From: Bacilli bacterium
GTDB lineage: Bacteria; Bacillota_I; Bacilli_A; JBKEDG01
NCBI GenBank assembly: GCA_047975285.1
Contig: JBKEDG010000052.1
Location: 1,415-65,414, forward strand
Length of the DNA stretch: 64,000 bases
Direction of reading: 5' to 3'
Under the pieces are notes generated by a model. The model was not told the origin of the DNA. It did no database searches and worked only from the letters and a program-made list of their open reading frames with translations. Each line of letters starts with the position of its first letter. Position 1 is the first letter of the stretch. The translations under genes were made by a program, and so were the position numbers. Below are positions 1,394 through 52,725 of this stretch, piece after piece.

Positions 1394-2824
1394 CTATTTA
1401 TATCTATAGCTTAGGATGGGCGTTAATATCAAGCTATATGTTATAGCAACTAAAGTAAAAATTGATATTTCATCAATTGTTAAAATATTGTACATAAAGT
1501 ATAAATTATGTGTAATTATTGGCAGAATAATTATTAAGAAAATCAATAAAAGAATTTTAAAATCAATTTTATCAATAAAAATTAAAATCATAGTTAATAA
1601 TACAAGAGTTAATATTAAAATTGATATTACTTGTGAAAATAATACTAAGTTTATAACAACTAGCAAAATATTAGAAGTTATAGTTAAAATAATATTTTCC
1701 TTTTTATTTATTTTGTAGTGATTTTGTGATATCTTATTGGTTATAAAAGTTGAAATTAATATTATTATAAGGACAGATCCAAATATTAATTCTTTTAAGT
1801 AATTTATACCAAACTTATCAAGAAAATATGCAAATTCATTAATTGCTATAATATATGTCATAATTGGAATTATTAATGTAGACATGTTTAAAATTAAATA
1901 TTTACCAATCTTTTTAAAATTAAGATTTGATTTATTTTTATAAAGATAGCATATATACATTAAAATTGAAATGATGGCTAGTCCGTTTATTACATTATTT
2001 GAAATGCTAATAAAACTATCAAAATAATTAAAGTAGGATACCTTACTACTAGAATTACTAAAATTATACTCATGTGCTCCTGCTGCTAACTCATTAATTG
2101 TATTTATAAATAAGTTTTTAGAATTATCATTGAATTTTGAAATATTACCATACAGATCACTTGAAGTATTATTAAATATCCCAAAAGAAGCAAAATTATT
2201 AGTATTTGGATTAGAATGACCTAATTCAAAATCAGAAAAACCTGATTTAGATGTAACATATGATTTATAAAAATTAATTATATTTTGATCATTAGAACTA
2301 TTATATAAGTAAAGTTCTCCACTATTTCCTGATGTGTTAAACGAGAATAAATAATCTATTGTTTTATATAATTTTTTATTATTTTTAATATAATCAATAT
2401 TACTATCTAGTGTATCTAAAGAATCGTTAGTAAAAATAAAAATTAAATTATTATTAGAATTATGATTATTGTATGTTTGAATTGCCCCAATAAATGAACT
2501 AACAGCTATAGAATTATTATTATCTAATGAATTATAATTGCTGACGACGTACTTAGTTATGAATCCAATAGTTTTTGCATTTGTATTCTTAGAAAATTTT
2601 TTTACAATGATTGAATTATTATCTTTAGAAACTTCTACATCATATTTACTTACTTCAGCAAGTATGTAGTTATATACAGTATCATAGCTGTTTGAATAGG
2701 TATTTATTCTTTCAACATGTCTGTTTACTGCATTGTAATTTACATTATATTTAAAATTTGCTTTTGTATTAATAAAAAAACAAGATATTAAGATTATTAT
2801 TATACAAATAATATATTTTTTCAT
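1394..2824 (-). CDS. Hypothetical membrane protein: lipoprotein-type signal, N/S-rich extracytoplasmic domain, C-terminal about 6-TM domain
   Basis: Long ORF with N-terminal MKKYIICIIIILISC (lipobox-like LISC), about 270 aa polar Asn/Ser-rich region, then multiple hydrophobic helices; no family recognised. Confidence 0.5.
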   Translation of the reverse strand: MKKYIICIIIILISCFFINTKANFKYNVNYNAVNRHVERINTYSNSYDTVYNYILAEVSKYDVEVSKDNNSIIVKKFSKNTNAKTIGFITKYVVSNYNSLDNNNSIAVSSFIGAIQTYNNHNSNNNLIFIFTNDSLDTLDSNIDYIKNNKKLYKTIDYLFSFNTSGNSGELYLYNSSNDQNIINFYKSYVTSKSGFSDFELGHSNPNTNNFASFGIFNNTSSDLYGNISKFNDNSKNLFINTINELAAGAHEYNFSNSSSKVSYFNYFDSFISISNNVINGLAIISILMYICYLYKNKSNLNFKKIGKYLILNMSTLIIPIMTYIIAINEFAYFLDKFGINYLKELIFGSVLIIILISTFITNKISQNHYKINKKENIILTITSNILLVVINLVLFSQVISILILTLVLLTMILIFIDKIDFKILLLIFLIIILPIITHNLYFMYNILTIDEISIFTLVAITYSLILTPILSYRYK

Positions 2825-3453
2825 AAACTCACCTCTTTATAAAACTGTTTTATAATTATAACATATTTTACATAAAATTGTTATTTTACTACTAAAAATT
2901 AGCACTTATATACTTGTAAATGAAGAAAGACTAATTATTTAAAAAATTAAATTAAATGATGTATTATGATTTAAGCAATATATAAATTAGTAATTTGCTC
3001 TTAAATAATTTTTACTTTATTTGGATTGAGTCAAGTTATAAATAAATTGGAATGTTATTACTTCTTTTTAAATATTTTTTAATTTACCATACATTTTATT
3101 TAAATCAATATTTTTATTAATTTTAATGAAATAGTTGATATAATAATTTCAATATCAGAATATAAATTATGGTGGAGCAAAAACGAAAGTTTATATTTAG
3201 TAAGTAAATTGTTCATTACAACCATTGAAACGATCATTTTACTGTTTTAGATCTATTTTAGATATTTGGATCTTATAAATATATATTTTACATAAAATTA
3301 CCATTTATATATAATTTTCAATCTTTTCAATCATAATATTCAGTATTTACTTGATGGGGATACCTATTAACTAATTTATATGTTATACTCTAAATAGATG
3401 AGATACTGTACATGTGATTATCTGCTACAATATGAATAAAGGATGTGATAAAA

Positions 3454-4187
3454 TGAATGTAACAGAATTACTCACTAATAAAATGAGATTACCGGATTTT
3501 GCGGTAAGAAATCAGGCTTTATCAGAAATTTGTGAGATAATAATTAATGATAAAATTACTAAAGAAGGAAAATTATTAGTTTTAGATTATAGTTTAAAAA
3601 TTCTATTTGTTGATGTTGGGAAAACTGTTAATAATTACTATAGGAGTTCCAATCTTTGTGTTATTCAGTGTATTTTGGAAGATAACTTGGATAAAAATTA
3701 TATTGAAGATGACAAATTAGTGCAATTATTTTCAATAATGATTGAATACTTATCGCTTGAATTTATAGAATTAGGCTACGATAATAAATTCGGTATGATA
3801 CATACTTTAGCTCACATTGCTGATGTATTTGTTACATTATTTGATTATAAATGTATTAATAACTCAGAAAATTTTAAAAAATATTTTGAACTAGTTGTTG
3901 ATCGATATTGTTCATTGAACTATGTATTCATTACTGATGAAGCTGCTAGAATTTTAAGGGTATTTAATACTTATTATATTAATTTTAATAACGTTGAATA
4001 TATTATTGGATTTTTAGATGAATATAAAAGTAGATTAACTAAAGGTATTAAGGGTCTAAATCAGAGACAAAATTATTATAATTTTTTACATACGTTACAT
4101 TTTTTTACAAATGATATGGAATTATTGAGATTTATAGTTGAAGAATTAGAAAGAAAATATAAGAGGTATATAGATGGAATACTATAA
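3454..4187 (+). CDS. Hypothetical alpha-helical cytoplasmic protein, translationally coupled to proC
   Basis: ORF with AAAGGATG SD 6 nt before ATG at 3454 (MNVTELL..), extended -10 TGtTATACT promoter near 3375-3386; 14-nt overlap with downstream proC; no recognisable motif. Confidence 0.5.
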
Positions 4188-4932
4188 TATTGGATTCATT
4201 GGGTTTGGAAATATGGGAAAAGCTTTAGGTTTAGGTCTTATATCAAAAAATTATAATGTATATTATAATGATTTAATAGATATGGAAATTAGTGGAGTAA
4301 CTTATGCAGATGTTGAAACTATTTTATCCAAATGCAAGTATATTGTATTAGCCATTAAACCATATCACTATGAAGAATTCTTGAATAATCATGATGTTAG
4401 GAATAATATTATTATTTCAATCGCTGCTGGTATTACATCTGCATTTATGGAAAAATTTTGTAATAAATTTATCTTAACTATGCCAAATACTCCGGCGACT
4501 TTAAAATTAGGTTATACAGTTATGGTGAAAAATGATCAGTTAACAGATGATGAATTTGAAACTGTCAGAGTTTTTTTTAATAGTGTTGGTAAAACAAAAA
4601 TAATCAATGAGGAAGAACTATCAAAATATATTTGCTTAAGTGGAAGCTCTCCGGCCTATTTCTTTATGTATATTGATTGCTTATCAACTGCTATGTCAAA
4701 ATTAGGAATTGAAAAAACTGAATCCGAGAAAATTTTAGCACATGTAATGAAAGCTACTTCAGAGATGCTTTTACAAGAGGGAAATAGTGCAAAACAATTA
4801 TATGAAAATGTATGTAGTCCTAATGGAACAACAATTGAAGCAATAAATGTTTTTAAAGATAATAAATTCGAAGAGATATGTTATAATGCAATAAAAAATT
4901 GCTTTGAAAAAGCTGAGAAAATGAAAAAATGA
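4174..4932 (+). CDS. proC: Pyrroline-5-carboxylate reductase
   Basis: N-terminal Rossmann IGFIGFGNMGKAL, SGSSPAYFFMYIDCL motif typical of ProC, length 252 aa; AGAGGTA SD. Confidence 0.8.
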   Translation: MEYYNIGFIGFGNMGKALGLGLISKNYNVYYNDLIDMEISGVTYADVETILSKCKYIVLAIKPYHYEEFLNNHDVRNNIIISIAAGITSAFMEKFCNKFILTMPNTPATLKLGYTVMVKNDQLTDDEFETVRVFFNSVGKTKIINEEELSKYICLSGSSPAYFFMYIDCLSTAMSKLGIEKTESEKILAHVMKATSEMLLQEGNSAKQLYENVCSPNGTTIEAINVFKDNKFEEICYNAIKNCFEKAEKMKK

Positions 4933-4960
4933 TTTAAAATTAATTAAATCATTTTTTTAC
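4930..4960. terminator. Bidirectional hairpin between convergent proC and the adenosyltransferase gene
   Basis: TGATTTAA-AATTAATT-AAATCA inverted repeat then TTTTTTT. Confidence 0.45.
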
Positions 4961-5478
4961 ATTTTAACTTCAATAAGTTCAATATTATTTATGGTATTTT
5001 CATAACACGCAATAATGTAAATAAAATCTGACAATCTATTAATATATGTTAAGACATCACCATTGAAATCAAATTTTTTAGAAACTTTTACTATTTTTCT
5101 TTCACATTCTCGGCAAATACATCTACAAATATGTAAGTTGGAAGCTGTAATATTACCTCCTGGGAGTACAAAATGGTTGAAATTTTCAATTTTTGTTGTA
5201 AATTTATCAATACATTCCTCTAACCAGTCAATTTCACTGTATTTAACCTTATATTTTGATGAATCAGTCTGTGCTAAATCGTGACTAACGATAAATAGAT
5301 AGTTAGAAATTCTAATTAAGTATTCATCGTATTTTGGTTCAATACTTCTTACCAAATTTAGATGAGAATTAAGAGTGTCAATAGTTCCATATGCATCAAC
5401 TCTTAAATCATCTTTAAATACACGTTCACCAATTATACTAGTTGTTCCTTTATCACCTGTTTTTGTATAGACTTTCAT
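4957..5478 (-). CDS. pduO: ATP:cob(I)alamin adenosyltransferase, PduO-type
   Basis: MKVYTKTGDKGTTSIIGERVFKDDLRVDAYGTIDTLNSHL matches the PduO/MMAB N-terminal signature; AAGGAGAA SD; last gene of the riboswitch-led operon. Confidence 0.85.
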   Translation of the reverse strand: MKVYTKTGDKGTTSIIGERVFKDDLRVDAYGTIDTLNSHLNLVRSIEPKYDEYLIRISNYLFIVSHDLAQTDSSKYKVKYSEIDWLEECIDKFTTKIENFNHFVLPGGNITASNLHICRCICRECERKIVKVSKKFDFNGDVLTYINRLSDFIYIIACYENTINNIELIEVKM

Positions 5479-5488
5479 AATTTTCTCC

Positions 5489-6238
5489 TTATTCCCATAA
5501 CTTTAATAAAGTTTGCATCCATTCTTTTACATCAACACCGTATACATTTTTTAGTCTAGAACTGGTTAGGATTTCTTTGCAGTTTCCATAATAGAAGTTA
5601 TGTTCATTGTCAATAAGCATAACTTTATCAGCATATTTTTGTACTAAGTTTAAATCATGTAATACAACAATGGCAATCTTATTTTCTTTTTTCACCCAGT
5701 TCTTAATAAAAGATAATATTTCAAATTGATGTTTTAAATCAAGGTGATTTGTTGGCTCATCTAACATAATAATTTTTGGGTCTTGTACAATAAGTCGTGA
5801 AATCATTACTCTTTGATATTGTCCACCACTAATTTGATCAATTCTTTGATATTTTACGTCATATAAATCTGTTAACTTTAATGCATCTGATATTACTTCA
5901 TCTTCAACATCTACCTTAAATAGACCATTACTTTTTGAGTATGCTCCCATTGACACTGTATCATATATTGAATATGAAAAATAATTTGCTTTATTTTGTG
6001 ATAACAATCCAACCACTTCACCTAATTTTTTATGTGTTAGGCTTTTTAAATCAGTTTTATTATACAAGATATTCCCTTCATAATCAATAGTGTTGTTAAT
6101 TGATTTAAGTAAAGTTGATTTTCCACAACCATTAGGGCCAACAATACATAAAATTTCGCCATCTTCAATTTTAAAAGAAAAGTTTTTTAGAATTTTTTTG
6201 TTTTTATACCCAGTACTTAAATTTTTTATTTGTAACAT
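5489..6238 (-). CDS. btuD: ABC transporter ATP-binding protein (BtuD/FecE-type, cobalamin/iron-siderophore class)
   Basis: Walker A GPNGCGKST, ABC signature LSGGQYQR, Walker B IIMLDEPTNHLD; TAATG stop/start overlap with the upstream permease. Confidence 0.85.
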   Translation of the reverse strand: MLQIKNLSTGYKNKKILKNFSFKIEDGEILCIVGPNGCGKSTLLKSINNTIDYEGNILYNKTDLKSLTHKKLGEVVGLLSQNKANYFSYSIYDTVSMGAYSKSNGLFKVDVEDEVISDALKLTDLYDVKYQRIDQISGGQYQRVMISRLIVQDPKIIMLDEPTNHLDLKHQFEILSFIKNWVKKENKIAIVVLHDLNLVQKYADKVMLIDNEHNFYYGNCKEILTSSRLKNVYGVDVKEWMQTLLKLWE

Positions 6239-7224
6239 TATTTTTTTCTCCTCATTATAAATATTATTGCAAAAAATGGTGCTCCAATTAAAGCAGTTAT
6301 TGCACCAACTGGAAGCTCAATAGGAGGTGCTATTGTTCTTGCAAGTAAATCCGTTGCAATTAAGAATCCGCCACCAATCATAATTGATAAAGGAATAGTA
6401 ATTACATGGTTAGATCCAAACACTTTTCTGCATATATGAGGAACAACAAGTCCAACAAATCCTATTACACCGCATATTGAAACAGCACAAGCGGTTAATA
6501 GTGATGTTAAAATCATAATTTCGTTCTTTAGTTTTTTTACATTAACACCTAGACTATGTGCATCATCTTCTCCAAAACTTAATATGTCAAGTTGTTTACT
6601 CCTAATGAATAAATATATTGAACATATTATAAAAAATGGTAAAATCAGAATAATATCTTGCCAACCTTTCATAGCAATAGAACCAGATAAAAATAACAGA
6701 ATTTGTTTTGAATTTTCTAAATTTAATAGCATAATTAAAGAAATAAGTGCACCAAGAAGTAGGGAAAGAATCATTCCTGTAAGCACAATAGTTTCATTTC
6801 CTAGATTATTATCAATTAACGATACAAATTTTATAATGAAATATATAGTGATAAGTGCACCTAAAAAAGCAATTATTTGTGTTGTGTAGATACCAAGAAA
6901 ATTTAATTTTAATACAATAGCAATTGTTGCAGAAAGTCCAGCACCATTTGATATTCCAAGTGTATATGGACTTGCTAGCGGGTTTTTTAATAACGATTGA
7001 ATACATAGACCACTGATGCTTAATGAACCTCCTACAATAAATGCAAGAAATACTCTTGGAAATCTTATTTTCAAAATTATTGTATTAACAATTGTATTGT
7101 CTCCAAGATCACTTATAGTTAGATTACTGCTCCCAAACATTACTCCTGCAAAAATAATTAGTATTAATACGATTAATGTTATTATGAATTTATTACTGTT
7201 TTTCATTATGGATAGCTTTTGCAA
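6238..7224 (-). CDS. btuC: ABC transporter permease, FecCD/BtuC family
   Basis: About 9 hydrophobic helices, FecCD-type composition, between a binding-protein gene and an ATPase gene; start uncertain (TTG at 7224 or ATG at 7206). Confidence 0.8.
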   Translation of the reverse strand: MQKLSIMKNSNKFIITLIVLILIIFAGVMFGSSNLTISDLGDNTIVNTIILKIRFPRVFLAFIVGGSLSISGLCIQSLLKNPLASPYTLGISNGAGLSATIAIVLKLNFLGIYTTQIIAFLGALITIYFIIKFVSLIDNNLGNETIVLTGMILSLLLGALISLIMLLNLENSKQILLFLSGSIAMKGWQDIILILPFFIICSIYLFIRSKQLDILSFGEDDAHSLGVNVKKLKNEIMILTSLLTACAVSICGVIGFVGLVVPHICRKVFGSNHVITIPLSIMIGGGFLIATDLLARTIAPPIELPVGAITALIGAPFFAIIFIMRRKK

Positions 7225-8059
7225 TTTCTTCCATTCCTATAATAAATTTACATGATGGTCTGCTTGTTTCATCTGTTGCAACTTTAAAAACTGTATTATT
7301 TTTAACAGCAGAAATATTATCAAATCCATCTCTACTTAATATTTCATCAATAGGATTGTCAATGTAATTTACGTTTGTGATTATAACATCCGGATTCTCT
7401 TCAATGATTGTTTCAGCGCTTGGAGAAAAATAATCTTTTTCCACATCATTAAAAATATTTTCACCGCCAACTAAAGTTATAATTTCATTTAAAAACGATG
7501 ATTTTCCTGGTGTATAAATGTTAGGAGCAGGTGCGATTTCCATATATACTTTCTTTATAGTTTTATTACTATATTTATTTGTAATATCCTCTACTTTAGT
7601 TTTTAACTCATCAACTAAATTATCGCTAGCATCAGTATTATCTAAAGCTTTTCCTACTTCTGAAATACCTAAATAAATATCGTCGATGCTATTGGCACCA
7701 GAAATAGGAATTACTTTAATGCCCTCATCTTCAAAAATAGAGTACCCTGACTTTTTATCTCCTTCATAATTGTAATCAGCAACAAGGATATGAGTTGGTT
7801 GCAGTAATAATATCTCTTCAGTATTTAAAGTCATAGCATCTAAAGTAGTTAAATCTTTTGTTTCATCAAAAATCGAATACGTATCAACAGCAATTAGTGT
7901 ATCTTCCATACCTAATCCAATAATGTTTTCTGTAATACTTGGAGCAAGACTTATAACTTTATAATCACTATAGTCCTTTTCATTCACTTCGCTTTTTTTA
8001 CTTTCACATCCAATAAATAATAAGGATATTGTAGTAAACAGTACTAATAATTTTTTCAT
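7193..8059 (-). CDS. btuF: Cobalamin/siderophore-type periplasmic binding lipoprotein (BtuF-like)
   Basis: AAGGAGGAAAAC SD before ATG at 8059; lipoprotein signal MKKLLVLFTTISLLFIGC; class III substrate-binding-protein composition; first gene after the cobalamin riboswitch. Confidence 0.8.
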   Translation of the reverse strand: MKKLLVLFTTISLLFIGCESKKSEVNEKDYSDYKVISLAPSITENIIGLGMEDTLIAVDTYSIFDETKDLTTLDAMTLNTEEILLLQPTHILVADYNYEGDKKSGYSIFEDEGIKVIPISGANSIDDIYLGISEVGKALDNTDASDNLVDELKTKVEDITNKYSNKTIKKVYMEIAPAPNIYTPGKSSFLNEIITLVGGENIFNDVEKDYFSPSAETIIEENPDVIITNVNYIDNPIDEILSRDGFDNISAVKNNTVFKVATDETSRPSCKFIIGMEEIAKAIHNEKQ

Positions 8060-8067
8060 GTTTTCCT

Positions 8068-8300
8068 CCTTAAAAATATAAAAACTTATTAACACCTAGA
8101 TGCTAATAAGTAAACAAATGTATACTTATTTTCTCGCACCCAGGAGATGAATAACATTTATATAGGCAGGTCTACTGGCTTAACTTCATCTTACTCTAGT
8201 ACCTTCCCGATTAATTAATAATCAGTGGTTATTACTATTTTATCAGTATCACAGTTGCTGGGGCAGCTTAGGATTACCTAATTCCCTTTTAAGTTTAAAC
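8068..8300 (-). promoter_or_regulatory. Cobalamin (AdoCbl) riboswitch with an intrinsic-terminator expression platform
   Basis: Minus strand reads AAAAGGGAATTAGGTAATCCTAAGCTGCCCCAGCAACTGTGA ... AAGCCAGTAGACCTGCC (B12 box) ... CTCCTGGGTGCGAG; downstream CTTATTA-12nt-TAATAAG hairpin plus TTTTTATATTTTT directly before the btuF RBS. Confidence 0.85.
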
Positions 8301-8413
8301 ACCTATATAACTATTTATTAAGTTTCATTTAAAATTATAATATCTATTTGCTAGGATGTCAAGTGTTGTATATTTTAATTATTTACAGTATAATGATATT
8401 AAGAGGTGAGAAA

Positions 8414-10054
8414 ATGAAAAAAAACAATAATTTAATAATAGGAATAATTATTGCAATTGCTTTGTTTATTTTTAATTATTTTGAATTAATAACAATTAAT
8501 CTTAGATATGATGGGTTTAGAACTATTGTAATGTTTGCAATATTTTTAATATTGCTTATAAGATATTTAAAAAAACATGGACTAGGTACATTAAGTGGTG
8601 GTTTTCAAAGTACAAATATTCCTACAAGAACAATGATGAATTTAAAATCTTGGAAAATATTTAGAATTTTTATAATTGTAATATTACTGAACTCTTTGAT
8701 AGCATTTTTAAGTGGTCCAGTCTTTTTTGCGTCTAGTTATGCAAAATTGATTGGAGATATAGAGACAAAAGAGTTTTCTAGCGATTTTAGTACTCCTAAG
8801 CTTGATTCATTACCTATTGTTGATACAAAATATGCAAAACTATTGGGCGATAAAAAACTAGGGTCAACATCTGGACTTGGAAGTGAGTTTCATGTGGGTG
8901 AATATACGGATATTGTGTATAATGATGAATTCTACATTGCAGCTCCTTTAGAGTATAATGGATTTTTTAAGTGGTTTAATAATAGAAAAAGTGGAACACC
9001 TGGATATATTTTAATTAATAAATCAACATCTAAAGTTGAACTTGTGACCGCTTTAAATGGTAAAGATATTAGTTTAAAGTATGTTGATAGTGCTTATTTA
9101 AATACTGACTTACATAGAAAAGCTTATTTTGGTGGGGGATGGAATAATGAAATAACTAAGCCATTTTTTGAACTTGATGAAGAGGGAATGCCATATTTTG
9201 TTTATCCAAAAACGAAAAAAACTATCGGTATAAGCGGTGGAGATGATGTATATCAAACTGTTGTTGTTAATGCTGTAAATGGAGAAGTGAATGTTTATAA
9301 TCTTGGAGAACAACCAAAGTGGGTGGATAATGTTTATTCATCAAATTTAATTTCACAACAATTAAATTATTATGGTAAGTATCAAAATGGATTTATAAAC
9401 TCAATTCTTGGGCAAAAAGGTTTATTAAGAACTACAGATGGTAATAGACATATTTATAATAAAGATGATCTTGCAGTTTATACAGGAATGACTAGTATTG
9501 GAACTGATGAATCTACAGTTGGAATGGCATTTGTAGATGTTACTAATAAAAATGCGAAAATGTATTCCTTAACTGGTGCTACAGAAGATGCTGCAAAAAA
9601 GTCTGCAGAAGGTAAAGTGCAAAATTTAGGTTACACTGCTTCTTTTCCAATACCTATTAATATTAATGGTGAAGGCGCATATTTTATTACCTTAAAAGAT
9701 GCGGAAGGATTAATTAAACAGTATGCTTTTGTAAATGTCAATGATTATTCTATTGTTGAAAATGCTGTTACAATTACCGAAGCATATAGTAACTATGTAG
9801 ATAAAATGGGCTATGATAATGTTGAAAATACTGATTCAATTGCTGAACTGGATGCAGAAGTTGTTAGAATTAATGACGAAATTGTCAATGGAGATAGTGT
9901 ATACGTTCTGTTAGTTAAAATAGATGGTGAAAATCATTTATATACATGGAAAAAACCTAATAGTGAAATGGTTTTAACAAATGTAGGTGATAAAGTTAAA
10001 ATAAAAGTCAATGAAGATAAGATAATTAGCTTTGATAATTTAGAAATTGAATAA
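8414..10054 (+). CDS. Hypothetical membrane protein (N-terminal TM helices plus large extracytoplasmic domain)
   Basis: AAGAGGTGAG SD before ATG 8414 (MKKNNNLIIG..); 3-4 N-terminal hydrophobic helices then about 430 aa polar, beta-rich domain; no family recognised. Confidence 0.55.
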   Translation: MKKNNNLIIGIIIAIALFIFNYFELITINLRYDGFRTIVMFAIFLILLIRYLKKHGLGTLSGGFQSTNIPTRTMMNLKSWKIFRIFIIVILLNSLIAFLSGPVFFASSYAKLIGDIETKEFSSDFSTPKLDSLPIVDTKYAKLLGDKKLGSTSGLGSEFHVGEYTDIVYNDEFYIAAPLEYNGFFKWFNNRKSGTPGYILINKSTSKVELVTALNGKDISLKYVDSAYLNTDLHRKAYFGGGWNNEITKPFFELDEEGMPYFVYPKTKKTIGISGGDDVYQTVVVNAVNGEVNVYNLGEQPKWVDNVYSSNLISQQLNYYGKYQNGFINSILGQKGLLRTTDGNRHIYNKDDLAVYTGMTSIGTDESTVGMAFVDVTNKNAKMYSLTGATEDAAKKSAEGKVQNLGYTASFPIPININGEGAYFITLKDAEGLIKQYAFVNVNDYSIVENAVTITEAYSNYVDKMGYDNVENTDSIAELDAEVVRINDEIVNGDSVYVLLVKIDGENHLYTWKKPNSEMVLTNVGDKVKIKVNEDKIISFDNLEIE

Positions 10055-23384: not shown

Positions 23385-23693
23385 ATGGTTAAAGTAATTA
23401 CAGCTGAAGAATTATCAAATTTAGATAATAATGGATCTATTTTAGTTGATTTTTTTGCAGATTGGTGTGGCCCATGTCAGCAGTTAGGTCCAATATTAGA
23501 TGAAGTTTCAAATGAAGTGGATACTCCTATTTACAAAATTAATGTTGATGATCCTGCTTCAAAAAAACTTGCAATGAAAAACAAGGTAATGTCTATTCCT
23601 ACAATGGTAATGTTTAAAAATGGTGAATCAGTTGCAACAACAGGATTTTTAGGTAAAGAAGATTTAATAAAGTTTATTAATGAAAATAAATAA
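23385..23693 (+). CDS. trxA: Thioredoxin
   Basis: WCGPCQ active site, 102 aa. Confidence 0.9.
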   Translation: MVKVITAEELSNLDNNGSILVDFFADWCGPCQQLGPILDEVSNEVDTPIYKINVDDPASKKLAMKNKVMSIPTMVMFKNGESVATTGFLGKEDLIKFINENK

Positions 23694-23759
23694 ACTATGA
23701 TTAGAAATTAGTAAATATAATTATTTATAGAAAGTCAATGATGATGGAAATTTGGCAAT

Positions 23760-23928
23760 GAATATTTATTAAGAACATCTATGAGTTAATAGAAGAAAGT
23801 AATTTTACTAGTAGAACTATTCGTAAAACTGCGTTAAAGTTATGAGAGTGTACTTGTGTACAAATTAAGGTGGTACCGCGAAATAATTTCGTCCTTATAT
23901 ATTTAATATATAGGGATTTTTTTAAGGA
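23760..23928 (+). promoter_or_regulatory. T-box riboswitch leader of asnS
   Basis: AATTAAGGTGGTACCGCG at 23863-23880 (near-consensus T-box), then TCCTTATATAT/ATATATAGGGA terminator hairpin plus TTTTTTT immediately before the asnS RBS. Confidence 0.75.
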
Positions 23929-23934
23929 GAAAAT

Positions 23935-25320
23935 ATGGATTTAAGAGAGTTAGTAAAAAAATATAAAGATTTGGAAGGTCAAACTGTAAATGTTTCTGGC
24001 TGGATTAGAAATAACCGTGACCAAAAAGAATTTGGATTTTTAGAACTATTTGATGGCACTGCTTTTGGGAGTATTCAAATAGTTTATTCAGATGATAATA
24101 CAAATAATTTTGAAGAAATTAGTAAATATAGAATTGGTAGTGCTCTTGAAATTGAGGGTGAAGTAGCTTTAACTCCTAATGCTAAACAACCGTTTGAAAT
24201 AATAGCAAAAAAAGTAGTTTTATGTGCTGATTCAGGTGAAGATTATCCAATTCAACCAAAGAGACATACAAGAGAATTTTTAAGAGAAAAAGCACATTTA
24301 AGAGCTCGTACGCTGTTATTTAACACAGTTTTTCGTGTTAGAAATGAACTGACTTATGCAGTGCATAAATATTTTCAAGAACATGGTTTTGTTAATTGTC
24401 CTTCTCCAATTATTACTAAAGTTGATGCAGAGGGAGCTGGAGAAATGTTTGGTGTTTCTGTTCTTGAGCATAAAAACCCACCACTAGATAAAGAAGGAAA
24501 TGTAGATTACAATAAAGATTTTTTTGGTGGGAAGAGTAGTTTAACTGTTACTGGGCAGTTACAAGCGGAGATATATGCGATGTCTTTTAAAAAAACATAT
24601 ACATTTGGTCCTACTTTTAGAGCAGAAAATTCTAATACAAGTAAACATGCCGCTGAGTTTTGGATGATTGAACCAGAGATAGCATTTGCTGATAATGAAG
24701 AAAATATGAGAATTGCGGAAGATTTTGTTAAGAACGTTATTTCTTATGTTTTAAATAATTGTGATGAAGAGTTGAAATGGTTAGATAAGTTTGTTGAAAA
24801 AGGGTTGATTGATAAATTAAAAGATGTAGTTAGCAAAGATTTTTTAAGAGTTACGTATACACAGGCACAAGAAATATTAAAAAATGCTGATGTTGAATTT
24901 GAATTTCCTATTGGATTTGGAAATGATTTGGCAAGTGAACATGAAAAATATCTAACGGATATTCATTTTAATGCTCCCGTTTTTGTGACTGATTGGCCAA
25001 AAGAAATGAAAGCTTTTTATATGAGATTGAATTCTGATAATAAAACTGTTGCTGGAATGGATTTACTTGTTCCAAGAGTTGGGGAATTAATAGGTGGAAG
25101 TCAACGTGAAGAAAGATATGATCATCTAATTAAGCGTATGAAAGAGATGAATGTACCAAGAAAAGATTTGGAGTGGTATTTAGATTTAAGAAAATATGGT
25201 GGTTGTTATCATTCTGGTTTTGGATTAGGATTTGAAAGATTGGTAATGTATGTTACAGGAATTGAAAACATTAGAGATGTTCATCCATTTCCAAGGACAC
25301 CTAACAATTGTGAATTTTAG
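23935..25320 (+). CDS. asnS: Asparaginyl-tRNA synthetase
   Basis: Class II motifs FGPTFRAENSNTSKHAAEFWMIEPE, GGSQREER, GFGLGFERL; N-terminal OB fold; 461 aa. Confidence 0.9.
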   Translation: MDLRELVKKYKDLEGQTVNVSGWIRNNRDQKEFGFLELFDGTAFGSIQIVYSDDNTNNFEEISKYRIGSALEIEGEVALTPNAKQPFEIIAKKVVLCADSGEDYPIQPKRHTREFLREKAHLRARTLLFNTVFRVRNELTYAVHKYFQEHGFVNCPSPIITKVDAEGAGEMFGVSVLEHKNPPLDKEGNVDYNKDFFGGKSSLTVTGQLQAEIYAMSFKKTYTFGPTFRAENSNTSKHAAEFWMIEPEIAFADNEENMRIAEDFVKNVISYVLNNCDEELKWLDKFVEKGLIDKLKDVVSKDFLRVTYTQAQEILKNADVEFEFPIGFGNDLASEHEKYLTDIHFNAPVFVTDWPKEMKAFYMRLNSDNKTVAGMDLLVPRVGELIGGSQREERYDHLIKRMKEMNVPRKDLEWYLDLRKYGGCYHSGFGLGFERLVMYVTGIENIRDVHPFPRTPNNCEF

Positions 25321-27621: not shown

Positions 27622-30120
27622 ATGAAATATAATAATGAAATAATAATGAAACTAAATGATGATATAAATAAATATTTTCTTAATATTTTTCCTGTTGATG
27701 AAACTATGCATTTAACTCATGAAGGCGTGAGTAGGCTTGTAATGATTGATAGATATGCTCAAAAGGACAAAAGTTTAAAATCGCTTTCTGAGGGAGATAT
27801 TGTTATTACAATTGTCAAAGATGATTTGAATTTTCCAACGAGAGGAATTGGGAAAGTCATTAAATTATCATGGTCAACAAACGAAGCAATTATTGAACTA
27901 GAGGAAGAATTTTGTGGTTCATTAGAAGATGAAGAGGAAATTAGTACAAGAAGAATTAAAAGAAGTTTAAGTGTAGTTGAAAAGCCATTAGAATTGTATT
28001 ATGAACAAATTGCAAAGCGTGTTGCTTTTGCCCTTAGTAGAGAAGAGAGAAGTGAAGATTTAAGAGAATCTACATTTATGGATTTTTATGAAGTGCTAAG
28101 TGATATGTCATTTGTACCAGCGGGAAGAGTATTATTTGGTGCAGGTAGTGGAAATGAAGTAACATTTTTCAATTGTTTTGTAATGCCGATGATACAAGAC
28201 TCAAGAGGTGGTATTAGCGAACATCGTAAGGAAGTTATGGAAATAATGTCTCGTGGAGGAGGAGTAGGAACTAATGGTAGTTCACTTCGTCCAAGACATT
28301 GTCGTGCTAAAACTGTTGGTGGTAGAAGTAGCGGTGCAGTTAGTTGGTTAAATGATTTGAGTGGGCTAACTCATTTAGTAGAGCAGGGTGGTAGTCGTCG
28401 TGGAGCACAAATGATTATGATGGCTGATTGGCACCCTGATATTATTGAGTTTATTATTTCAAAAATGCAAAACCCTAAAATATTAAGATTTTTAATTGAA
28501 AATTCTAAAAATGATTTAATTGTTGAAACAGCAAAAGAAAAGTTAGCGTTTATTCCATTAACTTCTATTGAAAAAAAATTATATAGAGAGATTATTGATT
28601 CTGAAAATACTGTACCAAGTGATGTATATGAAGAAGCAACTAGTAAACTTAGAGATGGTGGAACTTATAATGTAAATGAGCCTGATTTTTTAACCGGTGC
28701 AAATATTTCTGTTAATATTACTTCTGAATTTATGGAGGCAGTTTTTAAAGATGATATTTATGAATTAAGGTATCCAGATTTAGATGCTTTGACTGATGAA
28801 CAAAAAGAATTTTATGATGAAAAATGGCATGAGATTGGTGATGTTAGAGAATGGGAAAGTTTAGGCTATCCAGTCAAAACATACTATGAAATTGAGGCCC
28901 GTGAATTATGGGATTTGATAAATGTTTGTGCTACATATAGTGCAGAACCAGGAGTGTTTTTCATTGATAATGCCAATGATATGACTAATGCAGTTGCTTA
29001 TGACCAAAAAATTGTTGCTACGAATCCTTGTGGTGAACAACCGCTTGCACCGTATTCTGTGTGTAATTTAGCAGCAATTAATCTCTCAAATGTTGTTGAT
29101 AAAGCAACAGGAGAAATTAATTATGAAAAACTAAAGCGAATTATTAGAATTGGTGTTAGAATGCAAGATAATGTAATAGATGTTACACCTTATTTCTTAG
29201 AATCTAATAAAGAACAAGCTCTTGGAGAAAGAAGAGTTGGTCTAGGTGTTATGGGACTTCATGATTTGTTAATATGGAATAAGAAAAAATATGGTAGCGT
29301 AGAGGGTAATGAGGTTGTAAGTAAAGTTATGCAAATTATTGCAGAAACTGCTTATAACACAAGTATTGATTTAGCTAAAGAAAAAGGAAGTTTTCCATTT
29401 TTAATTAATAGAGATAAACTATTAACATCAGGATACATAAAAAAATTACCTGATGAGATTAAGGAAAAAATCAAAAAAGAGGGTATTAGAAATTCACATT
29501 TATTAACCATTGCTCCTACTGGATCTACAGGTACTATGGTAGGTGTTTCTACTGGACTTGAACCATATTTTTCATTTAAGTATTTTAGAAGTGGAAGGCT
29601 TGGGAAATTTATTGAAGTTAATGCTAAAATTGTTGATGAATGGTTAAAATATAATCCTCAGTATAATGAGAATAATTTACCCAATTATTTTATTTCCGCA
29701 ATGGAATTGTCTGCAGAAGAACATGTAGAAGTTCAATGTGTGATTCAGTATTGGATTGATTCTTCGATATCTAAGACAGTTAATGCTCCAAAAGGATATA
29801 GTGTTAAAAACGTTGAAAAAATATATGAAAAACTATATTTAGGCGGTGCTAAGGGAGGTACTGTTTATGTTGATGGATCACGCGAAAGCCAAGTTTTATC
29901 TCTAACAAATGAAGATATAGAGATTACTGAACAACTTGACTTAGGATTGAATGTTAAAAATAATGATGTTAGTTTGGATACTGTTGTTACAAAGCAAGAC
30001 CAAGATGTTGGTGTAGAAATAAATAATATTTGCCCAATTTGTAAAGAAGGAAGAGTTATTGATTCTGGTGGCTGCAATACTTGTAGTAATTGTGGAGCTC
30101 AACTTAAGTGTGGTTTATAA
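27622..30120 (+). CDS. nrdJ: Adenosylcobalamin-dependent ribonucleotide reductase (class II, NrdJ) with C-terminal Cys4 zinc ribbon
   Basis: TNPCGEQPLAPYSVCNLAAINL active-site/thiyl region, IDRYAQKD N-terminus (compare RDRYFMKD of class II enzymes), no ATP-cone, C-terminal CPICKEGRVIDSGGCNTCSNCG. Confidence 0.85.
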   Translation: MKYNNEIIMKLNDDINKYFLNIFPVDETMHLTHEGVSRLVMIDRYAQKDKSLKSLSEGDIVITIVKDDLNFPTRGIGKVIKLSWSTNEAIIELEEEFCGSLEDEEEISTRRIKRSLSVVEKPLELYYEQIAKRVAFALSREERSEDLRESTFMDFYEVLSDMSFVPAGRVLFGAGSGNEVTFFNCFVMPMIQDSRGGISEHRKEVMEIMSRGGGVGTNGSSLRPRHCRAKTVGGRSSGAVSWLNDLSGLTHLVEQGGSRRGAQMIMMADWHPDIIEFIISKMQNPKILRFLIENSKNDLIVETAKEKLAFIPLTSIEKKLYREIIDSENTVPSDVYEEATSKLRDGGTYNVNEPDFLTGANISVNITSEFMEAVFKDDIYELRYPDLDALTDEQKEFYDEKWHEIGDVREWESLGYPVKTYYEIEARELWDLINVCATYSAEPGVFFIDNANDMTNAVAYDQKIVATNPCGEQPLAPYSVCNLAAINLSNVVDKATGEINYEKLKRIIRIGVRMQDNVIDVTPYFLESNKEQALGERRVGLGVMGLHDLLIWNKKKYGSVEGNEVVSKVMQIIAETAYNTSIDLAKEKGSFPFLINRDKLLTSGYIKKLPDEIKEKIKKEGIRNSHLLTIAPTGSTGTMVGVSTGLEPYFSFKYFRSGRLGKFIEVNAKIVDEWLKYNPQYNENNLPNYFISAMELSAEEHVEVQCVIQYWIDSSISKTVNAPKGYSVKNVEKIYEKLYLGGAKGGTVYVDGSRESQVLSLTNEDIEITEQLDLGLNVKNNDVSLDTVVTKQDQDVGVEINNICPICKEGRVIDSGGCNTCSNCGAQLKCGL

Positions 30121-49049: not shown

Positions 49050-49074
49050 ATATTTAATATTATTTATGATTGAG

Positions 49075-49279
49075 GATTAGTAATAAAAAGTTGTTTTTAA
49101 GAGAGTTAGTGGTTGCTGTGAACTAATAAATAATTTTTTATGAATTCACCTCATAGATGCAAGTAGGGAGATTTATCAAAATACTTGTCGGGGAAACTCG
49201 TTAATTAATTAAGTACTTTTGAGTAGGATGGTACCGCACACTTGTGCTCCTATTTGAAAGTTTTTTTATGGAGGGGAAT
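49075..49279 (+). promoter_or_regulatory. Probable T-box leader of pheST
   Basis: AGAGAGTTAGTGG (AG-box-like) near the start of the leader, GAATTCA (TTC Phe codon plus A) candidate specifier, TAGGATGGTACCGCAC close to T-box consensus at 49225-49240, U-rich tract before the RBS. Confidence 0.5.
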
Positions 49280-50332
49280 ATGAATGATTTAGATTTAAAA
49301 AAGATATATCAAAATTTTTTAACAGAAATATTAAAAATTGATGATTCAAAAAATTTGTTTGATTTACAAGTTAAATATTTGGGGAAAAAAGGAATATTAA
49401 CTAGTTGTATACATGAGTTGAAAAATATGGAAAAAGAGGATAAAGCTGTTTATGGAAGAGAGTTAAACAGTGTAAAAACTAGAATTAAAAGTCATATTGA
49501 GGAGAAAAAACGTGCAATTAGTGAAATAGAACTTGAAAGTCAACTCAATGAAGATTCAATAGATGTTACTCAACCAGGACTATATTTTGAAAGTGGATAT
49601 ATTCATCCTCTTGAAAAAATGAAAGTTCAAATATGCGCTGTTTTTACTACAATGGGATATGATGTTGTAACAGGTCCAGAAGTTGAATCAGACTATTATA
49701 ATTTCGAGATGCTAAATATTCCCAAAAACCATTCTGCTAGAGATATGCAAGATACGTTTTATATTGATGACAATAATTTGCTTAGAACTCATACTTCACC
49801 TATGCAAATTAGAATTATGATGAACAATAAAGAAAAAGGGCCGATACGCATTGTAAGTCCAGGTAAGGTTTATAGAAGAGATGAGGATGATGCAACGCAT
49901 TCACATCAATTTATGCAAATTGAGGGACTTCTAATTGATGAAGATATTTCAATTGGACATTTAGTTGCTACTTTAGAGGAATTTGTGAAGTCAATATTTG
50001 GTGAAGATAGAAGGGTTAGAGTTAGACCATCATACTTTCCATTTACAGAGCCATCACTAGAAGTTGATGTGGACTGCTTTAATTGTAATGGTTCTGGATG
50101 TAATATTTGTAAAAACACAGGATGGATTGAGGTTTTAGGAGCTGGAATGGTGCATCCAGAAGTTTTAAAAATGACTGGTTATGATTCAAAAAAATACTCT
50201 GGATTTGCATTTGGATTAGGCATTGAAAGGTTTGTAATGCTTAAATACAAGATTAAAGATATTAGAGATTTCTATACTAATGATTTAAGATTTATTTCAA
50301 AATTGAATAGTAGAGATGGGGGTGGATTTTAA
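49280..50332 (+). CDS. pheS: Phenylalanyl-tRNA synthetase alpha subunit
   Basis: Class II core FRNE-like motifs, GFAFGLGIERFVM motif 3; GGAGG SD before ATG 49280. Confidence 0.9.
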   Translation: MNDLDLKKIYQNFLTEILKIDDSKNLFDLQVKYLGKKGILTSCIHELKNMEKEDKAVYGRELNSVKTRIKSHIEEKKRAISEIELESQLNEDSIDVTQPGLYFESGYIHPLEKMKVQICAVFTTMGYDVVTGPEVESDYYNFEMLNIPKNHSARDMQDTFYIDDNNLLRTHTSPMQIRIMMNNKEKGPIRIVSPGKVYRRDEDDATHSHQFMQIEGLLIDEDISIGHLVATLEEFVKSIFGEDRRVRVRPSYFPFTEPSLEVDVDCFNCNGSGCNICKNTGWIEVLGAGMVHPEVLKMTGYDSKKYSGFAFGLGIERFVMLKYKIKDIRDFYTNDLRFISKLNSRDGGGF

Positions 50333-52725
50333 TGAAAATTTCTAGAAATTGGTTAGAAGATTATATAGATATAAATAGATTGACAAATATTGAAATTTCT
50401 GAAGGATTAACTAGGAGTGGTATAGAAGTTGAATCTGTGACTCCTTTAACAAGTGTTAAGGGTGTAATTGTAGCAATGATTTTAAATGTAAAGCCTCATC
50501 CTACATCAGATAAATTATCAATTTGTACAGTAGATATTGGAAACAATGCAACTTTTGATGTTGTTTGTGGAGCTAGTAATGTACGTGAATATATTAAAGT
50601 AGCGTTTGCACCTATTGGTGTAGTGATTAATGGAACAGAGATTAAAGAATCAAATATTCGTGGAATTAATTCGTTTGGAATGCTATGTAGTTTGGAAGAA
50701 TTAGGAATAAATTCTTCTTTAATTAGAGAAAATAGTGAAAATGAGATTTTAGTTCTACCAAATAACTTTGAACTTGGAGGCGATGTAATTGAATTAATGA
50801 ATTTTAATGATACAATATTTGATCTTAGTTTAACTCCTAACAGAAGTGACTGTTTAAGTGTTATTGGATTAGCTTATGAAATTAGTGCGATTTTTGATAT
50901 ACCGTTAAAGAAAAAAACTATTAAATATCCAGAAGTTGAGAATGAATCTGAATTTGTAAATTTACTTGTTTCAAACAATAATGTAAATTATTTTTCAGTT
51001 ATGCCATTACATAATATAAAAGTTGGTGATAGCCCACAGTTTATTAAATCAAGACTAATGAGTTGTGGAATAAAACCTATTAATAATGTTGTTGACATAA
51101 CAAATTATATTCTTATTGAAATTGGTCAGCCATTACATATTTTTGATTTAGCAAAGTCTACTCAAAATATTGAAGTAAGAAATGCTTTTAAAAATGAAAC
51201 TATTAAATTACTAGACGAAAAAGATTATTGTCTAGATACTGATGATATTGTTGTTGCAAATCAAGAAGTTTGTTTATCACTGGCAGGAATTATGGGTGGA
51301 ATGAACTCAAGAGTAACAAAGTATACTGAAAATATTTTATTAGAATGTGCTGTTTTTAATTCACAAAAAATAAGAAAGTCATCAAAAAAGCATTTACTTA
51401 GAAGTGAATCAAGCATTAGGTATGAAAAAGGTATAGACATAAACAAAGTTGAAATTGCACAAAAGATGGCTGTAGAATTATTGATTAAATATGCTTCAGC
51501 TAAACTTAGTACTAAACAAGTTTACTATAAAAGTGAAGAATTTGAATTCGAAGAAAATTATATAGAATTAGAGTATCAAAAATTAGTTAAATATTTAGGA
51601 TTTAATATTGATGTAAATGAAGTGGCTAAAATTTTTAATAGATTACAATTTTCATACACCTTTGAAAATTCTATTTTTAAAGTTAAAAAAATGAGTAGAA
51701 GAGCTGATTTACAATTTGATGTTTGTTTAATAGAAGAGATATTAAGATTGTATGGTGTTAATAAAATAAAAAAAGAATTGCCAAAATCAAAATTAAAAAG
51801 AGCTTATGTTGCTGATTATGATAGAACTCTTACTGCAATAAAGAATATTTTACATAGTATGGGTTATAGTGAATGTATTAATTATTCTTTAACATCTAAA
51901 AGTAAGGCCTATATTTCATTAAGTGAAAATGAAAGTTTGATTCAGTTGAAAAATCCACTTAGCAGTGAAAGAGAGTTCATGCGCAAAACACTGATACCTT
52001 CTTTAATAGATACAGCGGTATATAATTTAGAAAGACAAGCATCTATAGTTCGTCTATATGAAATAAGTCAAATTAATTTTCTAAAAGATAATGAGAATGT
52101 GACACATAATAAAATTACTGCAATGATATCAGGTTTTACGATCGAAAAACCTTTATTTGATGTTAAAATAAAAGGGGACTTTTATTTAATCAAGGGAGCT
52201 TTACAAAAATTACTTTCAATGGCTGGATTAACAGAAGGTAGAGACTATTTTGTTAAATCTAGTGATAATATACCGAATATATTTCATCCAAATCAAAGTG
52301 GAGAAATTATTTTATATGGGAAAGTAGTTGGTTACGTCGGTAAAATTCATCCTAAATATTCCAAATACGATTTATATACATTTGAGATTGATTTTTATGA
52401 ATTAAAAAAACTTTTTTCAGAAGATATCACTCTTGGGACTTTGTCTGTATATCCTTCAATCTCAAGAGATTTGAGTATTGTAGTTGAAAAAGAAATTAAT
52501 TCAATAGATATGATAAAATCGGTTCACAATTTAGACATTGATATCTTAGAAGATATAAGTATATATGATATTTACTATGATGAAAAATTACAAAATAAGA
52601 AATCGTTAACATTTAGAATTATTTTTAGAAGTAATATTTCTACATTATCAGATGAAACTGTTTTACAAAAATTAAAAATGATTACAGATGTATTTAGGCT
52701 TGAATACAATGGAGAACTTAGATGA
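50332..52725 (+). CDS. pheT: Phenylalanyl-tRNA synthetase beta subunit
   Basis: N-terminal tRNA-binding (EMAP) domain, B3/4, B5 and FDX anticodon-binding domains; TAATG coupling to pheS; 797 aa. Confidence 0.9.
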   Translation: MKISRNWLEDYIDINRLTNIEISEGLTRSGIEVESVTPLTSVKGVIVAMILNVKPHPTSDKLSICTVDIGNNATFDVVCGASNVREYIKVAFAPIGVVINGTEIKESNIRGINSFGMLCSLEELGINSSLIRENSENEILVLPNNFELGGDVIELMNFNDTIFDLSLTPNRSDCLSVIGLAYEISAIFDIPLKKKTIKYPEVENESEFVNLLVSNNNVNYFSVMPLHNIKVGDSPQFIKSRLMSCGIKPINNVVDITNYILIEIGQPLHIFDLAKSTQNIEVRNAFKNETIKLLDEKDYCLDTDDIVVANQEVCLSLAGIMGGMNSRVTKYTENILLECAVFNSQKIRKSSKKHLLRSESSIRYEKGIDINKVEIAQKMAVELLIKYASAKLSTKQVYYKSEEFEFEENYIELEYQKLVKYLGFNIDVNEVAKIFNRLQFSYTFENSIFKVKKMSRRADLQFDVCLIEEILRLYGVNKIKKELPKSKLKRAYVADYDRTLTAIKNILHSMGYSECINYSLTSKSKAYISLSENESLIQLKNPLSSEREFMRKTLIPSLIDTAVYNLERQASIVRLYEISQINFLKDNENVTHNKITAMISGFTIEKPLFDVKIKGDFYLIKGALQKLLSMAGLTEGRDYFVKSSDNIPNIFHPNQSGEIILYGKVVGYVGKIHPKYSKYDLYTFEIDFYELKKLFSEDITLGTLSVYPSISRDLSIVVEKEINSIDMIKSVHNLDIDILEDISIYDIYYDEKLQNKKSLTFRIIFRSNISTLSDETVLQKLKMITDVFRLEYNGELR

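Follow-up and report, generated by a model that had tools for sequence, protein, structure and literature searches.

A predicted transcriptional OFF riboswitch for cobalamin ahead of a btuF-btuC-btuD-pduO operon in an uncultured lineage of Bacilli

The locus

The DNA considered here, hereafter the window, is a stretch of 64,000 nucleotides (nt) from an uncultured, low-GC member of the Bacilli (contig JBKEDG010000052.1 of assembly GCA_047975285.1, positions 1,415 to 65,414 of the forward strand), and our subject is a minus-strand operon of four genes within it that is preceded by a cobalamin (Cbl, vitamin B12) riboswitch. The four open reading frames (ORFs) are co-directional, tightly packed and lie downstream of the riboswitch (Table 1). 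An earlier note on this DNA had read the region as a riboswitch followed by btuF, btuC, btuD and a gene for a PduO-type adenosyltransferase. That order and those protein families are borne out, with the qualification that the btu names are assignments from context, the equivalog cutoffs for these proteins being missed.

The first gene starts with an ATG at 8059, behind a ribosome-binding site (RBS), AAGGAGG at 8071-8065, that follows directly upon a run of U residues, and the signal peptide of its product ends in the lipobox FIGC. This protein of 288 residues has a 100% identical counterpart of the same length at NCBI, from a metagenome-assembled genome (MAG) labeled 'Bacilli bacterium', where it is named merely 'ABC transporter substrate-binding protein'. 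Together with the second and third genes it makes up the three parts of a type II importer, namely a cluster A binding protein, a FecCD permease and an ABC ATPase.

The product of the last gene passes the cutoffs of both TIGR00636 (PduO_Nterm, 165.2 against 108.45) and PF01923 (170 against 24 bits), and matches the solved structures of the Bacillus cereus (PDB: 3ke4), Lactobacillus reuteri (PDB: 3ci1, 3gaj) and Bacillus subtilis YvqK (PDB: 1rty) proteins with E-values of 1e-33 to 1e-35. The N-terminal ATP-binding motif, TKTGDKGTT, is found at residues 5-13. F103 aligns with position 118 of the 3gaj chain, which is Phe112 of the L. reuteri enzyme (LrPduO) once a 6-residue tag offset is allowed for, and in the alignment D34 and R119 correspond to D35 and R128 of LrPduO. 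A catalytic role of LrPduO Phe112 is attributed to Mera et al. 2009 in PMC4923194. The four genes probably serve in the uptake and adenosylation of corrinoids.

Table 1. Features of the riboswitch and operon, in the order of transcription
Feature	Position	Strand	Description
Promoter, sigma-70-type	8334..8362	-	TTGACA 8362-8357, 17-nt spacer, TATAAT 8339-8334
Aptamer	8148..8321	-	RF00174, Cbl-I-type, with P6 extension and very short P2
J3/4-L4 (GGGAA/L4) core segment	8286-8271	-	GGGAAUUAGGUAAUCC (quoted earlier as GGGAATTAGGTAATCC); sequence and RF00174 alignment
P5/L5 core segment	8267-8249	-	GCUGCCCCAGCAACUGUGA (quoted earlier as GCTGCCCCAGCAACTGTGA); sequence and RF00174 alignment
P5/L5 hairpin	8257..8267	-	GCUGCCCCAGC; L5 bases CCCAG 8262-8258, proposed kissing-loop partner
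B12 box	8181-8165	-	AAGCCAGUAGACCUGCC (quoted earlier as AAGCCAGTAGACCTGCC); sequence and RF00174 alignment
P13/L13 hairpin	8132..8147	-	UCUC-CUGGGUGC-GAGA; L13 CUGGG 8143-8139, complementary to L5 CCCAG
Antiterminator (predicted ligand-free fold)	8095..8144	-	Outer helix, CCUGGGUGC 8144-8136 with GCAUCUAGG 8103-8095
Antiterminator inner helix	within 8095..8144	-	AAUAAGUA 8130-8123 with UACUUAUU 8112-8105
Intrinsic terminator (predicted ligand-bound fold)	8072..8111	-	12-bp stem 8111-8100 / 8095-8084, loop CUAG, U-run 8084-8072; ACUUAUUAGCAU-CUAG-GUGUUAAUAAGU (8111-8084), then UUUUUAUAUUUUU (8084-8072)
btuF-like substrate-binding lipoprotein	7193..8059	-	288 aa; PF01497 (Peripla_BP_2), 98 bits
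btuC-like FecCD-family permease	6238..7224	-	328 aa, TTG start; PF01032, 302 bits; overlaps end of btuF
btuD-like ABC ATPase	5489..6238	-	249 aa; PF00005 (ABC_tran), 110 bits; start overlaps btuC stop
PduO-type ATP:cob(I)alamin adenosyltransferase	4957..5478	-	173 aa, single domain; TIGR00636, PF01923 (Cob_adeno_trans)
Candidate bidirectional terminator	4924..4957	both	14-16-bp A/U-rich hairpin between convergent pduO and proC, covering both stop codons

A cobalamin aptamer behind a consensus promoter

An Rfam 15 cmscan of the whole window returned one Cobalamin match, to RF00174 at 8148-8321 on the minus strand, with 106.8 bits and an E-value of 9.2e-26. The match covers the model from end to end (1-189 of 189 positions), is the best within clan CL00101 and scores 3.4 times the gathering score of 31.5 bits. 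The earlier note had proposed this very search, and the match lies on the strand that it predicted; likewise, the three motifs that it quoted as hallmarks of the aptamer are all found on the minus strand (Table 1). Its range for the aptamer, 8130-8295, had the strand and the approximate place right and the limits wrong: that range omits the 5' strand of P1 and enters the expression platform, the real aptamer being placed some 20-25 nt further upstream. There can be practically no doubt that 8148-8321 is a cobalamin riboswitch aptamer.

The promoter matches the consensus hexamers at 12 of 12 positions and is sited just upstream of the aptamer. Transcription would, on the evidence of this sequence, begin at about 8328-8326, a few bases ahead of the aptamer. 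By the terms of the earlier note, its reading would have been refuted by a start downstream of the aptamer or by the lack of a significant covariance-model match; the match is far above the gathering score, and the perfect promoter lies on the upstream side. TTGACA-17-TATACT is found at the same position in all seven related leaders described below, and hexamers and spacing are kept in eight of eight.

The P6 extension (model positions of about 80-165) is aligned with high posterior probability, giving the aptamer a Cbl-I-type architecture, while P2 is present in very short form, with 10 consensus positions of the model deleted. These features bear on the question of what the aptamer senses. 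Rather than being specific for adenosylcobalamin (AdoCbl), it might respond broadly to corrinoids and their upper ligands, as does the element of B. subtilis yvrC, in which case regulation would not strictly track the product of PduO. The unusually short P2 would fit such a response, as would the promiscuous binding of the B. subtilis btuF/yvrC riboswitch (PMC7367189) and the broad corrinoid sensitivity of Cbl riboswitches (10.1101/2022.02.20.481237). Against it stand the RF00174 match over the whole length of the model, P6 extension and all, such an extension being usual in AdoCbl-selective Cbl-I aptamers, and the presence of pduO inside the regulated operon, a placement easiest to understand if what is sensed is the adenosylated form. 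We regard a broad response as rather unlikely, albeit the strongest of the alternatives weighed here.

Conservation of the riboswitch-operon arrangement

A search of genome contigs with the binding protein returned one locus, and relatives were gathered through the protein database and the contigs that encode its entries. This yielded seven distinct related loci, with BtuF proteins 47-68% identical, which together with the window form our alignment of eight leaders. In all seven an RF00174 match of 83-98 bits lies right upstream of btuF-btuC-btuD, and in six of them pduO ends the operon. When the circle is widened to loci with BtuF at least 41% identical, RF00174 is found directly upstream in nine of nine and pduO closes the operon in seven of the nine; counted without the window, eight loci carry aptamers of 83-99 bits before the same operon. 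The locus at 41% identity (L132) still has the riboswitch, and so have two further loci (L022 and L048). At 39% (L133) and 33% (L134), no RF00174 match was found upstream of the btuFCD homologues. The former locus encodes, at 2729-3361 and about 640 nt upstream of its btuFCD homologue, a 210-residue protein with B12-binding domains (PF02607, PF02310), which might be a protein-based B12 sensor or might be unrelated.

In one relative (L002, 6515-8273; also L003) the operon runs on past pduO into a His_Phos_1 gene (CobC-like), a 220-residue gene that finds no match in Pfam, then cobU and one or more additional genes. The cobU and CobC-like genes tie the module to corrinoid metabolism and salvage, and the extension suggests cobinamide salvage and nucleotide-loop assembly. 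A tblastn search of the window found no homologues of cobU, cobC or the 220-residue gene.

Two predicted, mutually exclusive folds of the expression platform

Between the aptamer and the RBS of btuF, the leader can form an antiterminator or a terminator, built from shared strands (Table 1). The earlier note had drawn attention to a CTTATTA/TAATAAG hairpin and a T-run just ahead of the RBS, and to transcription attenuation as their meaning. Both elements are present: the 7-bp hairpin (8110-8104 / 8091-8085) extends to a 12-bp stem, and the U-run, UUUUUAUAUUUUU at 8084-8072, is followed immediately by AAGGAGG at 8071-8065. Comparison of the leaders lends support to the attenuation itself. The terminator stem is 97.8% paired over the eight leaders, and four of its pairs show compensatory changes in which both sides are altered. 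The outer helix of the antiterminator is 98.6% paired in the same leaders, as against 15-47% in slid controls; the inner helix was judged by folding of single sequences, because MAFFT misaligns it owing to insertions and deletions.

Folding gives a consistent two-state picture in every relative. For the window, minimum-energy folding yields the antiterminator whether the platform is nascent (-15.2 kcal/mol) or complete (-19.0 kcal/mol, versus -15.8 for the terminator state), and the same holds for both forms of the platform when each of the eight leaders is folded singly. When L13 is withheld from intramolecular pairing, the terminator forms in the window and in every relative. The terminator hairpin, at -11 kcal/mol, has a z-score of -3.07, and 3 of 200 shuffled sequences gave folds at least as stable.

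The hinge between the two states appears to be the P13/L13 hairpin. Its 4-bp stem is 100% paired among the eight leaders, with one compensatory change from C-G to U-A, and the 16-nt UCUCCUGGGUGYGAGA that contains it is almost invariant. L5 is CCCAG in all eight, and its proposed 5-bp pairing with the CUGGG of L13 is worth -12.2 kcal/mol by RNAduplex. The strand CCUGGGUGC in which L13 lies is also the strand that pairs, in the antiterminator, with GCAUCUAGG, a segment of the terminator's 5' arm and loop. Since the antiterminator strand of the predicted fold is the L13 loop, the nucleotides of the proposed kissing loop would be in direct competition with that helix. That the L13 bases (CUGGG, part of CCUGGGUGC) do double duty as the antiterminator strand, such that docking by L5 competes with it base for base rather than by way of the 3' side of a longer, stabilized P13 stem, as in the Priestia megaterium metE switch, is in our estimate an evenly balanced proposition. 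Under this compact variant of the mechanism, the occurrence of UCUCCUGGGUGYGAGA before btuFCD in several low-GC lineages would make it a reusable minimal unit, in which either the kissing loop or the antiterminator forms.

The same wiring of alternative helices recurs, in unrelated sequence, in L027 and L132. The latter was not chosen by motif, and its L5-L13 pairing is compatible (ACCCCA:UGGGGU). The former came from a scan of metagenomes for the pattern GACCTGCC-N(8-36)-TCTYCTGGGTG, which has about 18 specified bases and struck more than 120 stretches (L012-L131), mostly of 55-75% GC and lacking an upstream CCCAG. Only L022, L027 and L048 among them were verified as RF00174; many of the others may be chance matches, others perhaps cobalamin leaders with another L5 partner, and the set was not used as evidence.

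Several observations weigh against this mechanism. The terminator's stem, at about -11 kcal/mol and with 2 G-C pairs, is weak and A/U-rich. Nothing was reported by a generic terminator scan of 4700-8600; it missed the 12-bp terminator because it demands at least 3 G-C pairs, and direct folding and comparison were used in its place. The compensatory support for the terminator comes from 8 related sequences, from one of which the structure was derived, and the five L5-L13 pairs, complementary in eight of eight leaders, fall in invariant columns that show no covariation.

These weaknesses of the terminator lend some color to the alternative that the riboswitch works mainly on translation, by sequestering the RBS, or on both levels. 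The 5' strand of P13, UCUCCU, could indeed pair with AGGAG of the RBS, and one long-range fold pairs the 3' strand of P1 with the U-run and the RBS region. However, the RBS lies outside every conserved helix, and the hairpin and U-run, kept with compensatory changes in eight of eight leaders, end before it. The UCUC strand, moreover, would be unpaired when ligand is absent and the operon is ON, the reverse of what repression calls for, and 37 of the 38 functional Cbl riboswitches in the reporter study of Kennedy et al. had predicted intrinsic terminators. Sequestration by the 5' strand of P13 or the 3' strand of P1 was rejected as being of the wrong regulatory sign and not conserved. Control at the level of translation is, in our view, improbable, and termination of transcription is the probable output of the riboswitch.

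The substrate of the transporter

The names btuF, btuC and btuD are functional assignments drawn from context and not from family membership. The NCBIfam equivalog cutoffs are all missed, by BtuF (NF002894, 69 against 234), by BtuC (NF007081, 224 against 461; NF003001, 209 against 334) and by BtuD (NF002981, 136 against 281), and models for heme and iron-chelate transport score about as well on these proteins as the btu models do. The best NCBIfam match of the permease is BtuC, under its cutoff. The top solved relative of the binding protein is an 'iron-binding protein' (PDB: 4m7o, E 2e-37), and the next-best PDB matches are B12-binding BtuF structures, 5ysc and 1n2z (E 8e-11 for the latter).

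Taken at face value, the 4m7o match, the unreached cutoffs and the sub-threshold matches to IsdE (heme) and a heme ABC ATPase could mean that what the transporter takes up is not a corrinoid but heme or an iron chelate, its link to B12 being purely regulatory. Specificity for corrinoids rests on context, namely the riboswitch, pduO and, in relatives, cobU. The importer shares its operon with a corrinoid adenosyltransferase, and in L002 also with CobU and a CobC-like protein; 11 loci, with identities as low as 34%, have a Cbl riboswitch ahead of their btuFCD homologues; B12-binding structures come directly after 4m7o; and the equivalent operon of B. subtilis raises the uptake of Cbl, pseudocobalamin (pCbl), cresolylcobamide (CreCba) and cobinamide (Cbi) (10.1101/2022.02.20.481237). 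Import of heme or iron chelates is accordingly very improbable, and corrinoids, while ambiguous as a substrate by sequence alone, are highly probable as what is carried.

A model of the regulation

The identity of the aptamer, the gene families, the conserved alternative helices and the conserved synteny were read directly from the comparisons above, and on them we base a model that goes further in respect of the ligand, actual termination, the transported substrate and the link to a reductase. We consider it very likely that the element is a transcriptional OFF riboswitch for AdoCbl, or related corrinoids, that governs btuF-btuC-btuD-pduO.

Transcription starting near 8327 at the consensus promoter would produce a leader of about 268 nt. 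When no ligand is at hand, the L13 strand CCUGGGUGC would pair with the terminator's 5' arm and loop, and the resulting antiterminator would allow readthrough into the operon. The cell would thereby gain an ABC importer of corrinoids, anchored through its lipoprotein, along with an enzyme of the PduO type to adenosylate the cofactor brought in. As AdoCbl accumulates and binds the aptamer, CCCAG of L5 would capture CUGGG of L13, and the kissing loop would hold P13 together. With P13 so held, the 5' arm of the terminator would be free to form the 12-bp hairpin, and transcription would stop on the U-run, about 10-20 nt before the RBS of btuF. The end product would in this manner feed back on its own uptake and its own activation, and its likely consumer would be a class II, AdoCbl-dependent ribonucleotide reductase encoded in the window.

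That the element is a decaying relic before a constitutive operon, a suspicion to which an uncultured MAG, an A/T-rich genome and a function read off the letters might give rise, is scarcely credible in the face of a score 3.4 times the gathering threshold, core motifs that are all intact and an aptamer, P13, antiterminator, terminator and promoter kept in relatives with BtuF 47-68% identical.

A likely consumer of the cofactor and the significance of the operon

The reductase in question is NrdJ, at 27622-30120 on the plus strand, 20 kb from the operon, which scores 1349 bits with NF005991 (cutoff 854) and 563 with TIGR02504 (NrdJ_Z, cutoff 400). Its gene starts 14 nt past lysS, with no leader of its own. 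NrdJ is a plausible consumer of the AdoCbl that the operon would furnish, and its presence makes it doubtful that the operon is 'accessory', as the earlier note had called it. Were the genome to encode no other reductase than NrdJ, the operon would count as essential and not as accessory. The conjunction of operon and NrdJ in the window suggests that this uncultured low-GC lineage of Bacilli depends on scavenged corrinoids.

The value of these findings lies chiefly in annotation, and no open question is advanced by them. The eight aligned leaders nonetheless offer a clean natural example of the logic of kissing loop, antiterminator and terminator, and possibly a compact template for synthetic corrinoid sensors.

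Genomic surroundings

Two further claims of the earlier note did not survive. The operon is not GC-enriched, with 27.9% against 27.8% for the window, a value at the 46th percentile of equal-sized windows. Nor is it the only ligand-regulated module: two T-box leaders on the plus strand, at 23688-23899 and 49057-49254, pass the Rfam gathering score of 93 with 94.7 and 99.5 bits; they precede asnS (23935-25320) and pheS-pheT (49244-52725), respectively. Horizontal acquisition, together with GC enrichment, was ruled out by the GC values and by the flanks of the operon (DUF2785-proC on one side and a gene for a 547-residue protein on the other), which are syntenic in relatives.

On the downstream side, a DUF2785 gene overlaps proC, for pyrroline-5-carboxylate reductase, at 3414-4932 (+), convergent to pduO, and two or more relatives (L008, 3772-5233; L009, 7102-8584) keep the pair, likewise convergent, on the downstream side of pduO. 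The hairpin between pduO and proC folds with -11.2 kcal/mol and a z-score of -5.15 when read on the minus strand, and with -12.5 kcal/mol and a z-score of -5.07 when read on the plus strand, none of 200 shuffles being as stable, and is a candidate bidirectional terminator by this folding. Beyond the DUF2785 gene, between it and metG, lies an ORF of 476 residues at 1394-2824 (-) with no Pfam or NCBIfam match.

On the upstream side, divergent from the promoter region of the riboswitch, 8411-10054 (+) encodes the 547-residue protein, which has hydrophobic N-terminal segments and no match in Pfam, NCBIfam or PDB. L001, L006 and L009 each have a counterpart of 542-546 residues at the corresponding divergent site, which may reflect a link to B12 or mere synteny.

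Comparison with known systems

The PduO-type enzyme resembles that of L. reuteri in being a single domain of about 170-190 residues, in its match to 3ci1 and 3gaj (E 1e-33), in the GDxGxT motif and in the Phe112 equivalent, F103. Unlike the L. reuteri enzyme, it has no link to a pdu or diol dehydratase cluster and is slightly shorter at the C-terminus, and its activity is predicted.

The Escherichia coli btuB riboswitch belongs to the same RF00174 family and shares the B12 box, and E. coli BtuCD-F has the same type II ABC architecture (Peripla_BP_2, FecCD, ABC_tran), its BtuF structure 1n2z being a detectable homologue of the binding protein. In E. coli the element governs btuB, the gene of an outer-membrane receptor, chiefly through translation, and neither btuCD nor btuF lies behind it. 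The proteins of the window differ further in missing the BtuF, BtuC and BtuD equivalog cutoffs, and the binding protein is a lipoprotein of the Gram-positive kind.

For the metE riboswitch of Priestia megaterium, a mechanism involving a kissing loop, P13, an antiterminator and a terminator has been proven by compensatory mutagenesis (10.1101/2023.06.26.546531). It is, as the element of the window would be, a repressing transcriptional switch in which the kissing loop stabilizes P13, with a structured spacer that separates P13 from the terminator. The P. megaterium antiterminator strand, however, is supplied by the 3' side of P13, whereas in the predicted fold of the window it is the L13 loop and one base of the 5' side. 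The P13 of the window, moreover, has merely 4 bp, and the regulated genes differ.

In B. subtilis, the operon yvrC-yvrB-yvrA-yvqK (btuFCDR) lies behind a Cbl riboswitch and serves to take up and adenosylate several corrinoids (10.1101/2022.02.20.481237; PMC7367189). Its gene order is identical to that of the window, with the riboswitch directly before the first gene; the last genes are homologous (YvqK, PDB: 1rty, E 2e-33), YvrC, YvrB and YvrA are likened to the transporter proteins by order and families, and the proposed L5-L13 kissing loop of the window would follow an architecture described as common to all classes of cobalamin riboswitch (PMC7367189). The B. subtilis aptamer is an atypical, promiscuous Cbl-I/Cbl-II hybrid with a small P6 extension, whereas that of the window matches RF00174 in full, with a P6 extension and a minimal P2. 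The kissing loop pairs CCG with GGC in the former and would pair CCCAG with CUGGG in the latter, and as B12-dependent enzyme B. subtilis has QueG where the window has NrdJ. Set beside these systems, the riboswitch and operon of the window are real and conventional, a fresh example of a well-understood type.

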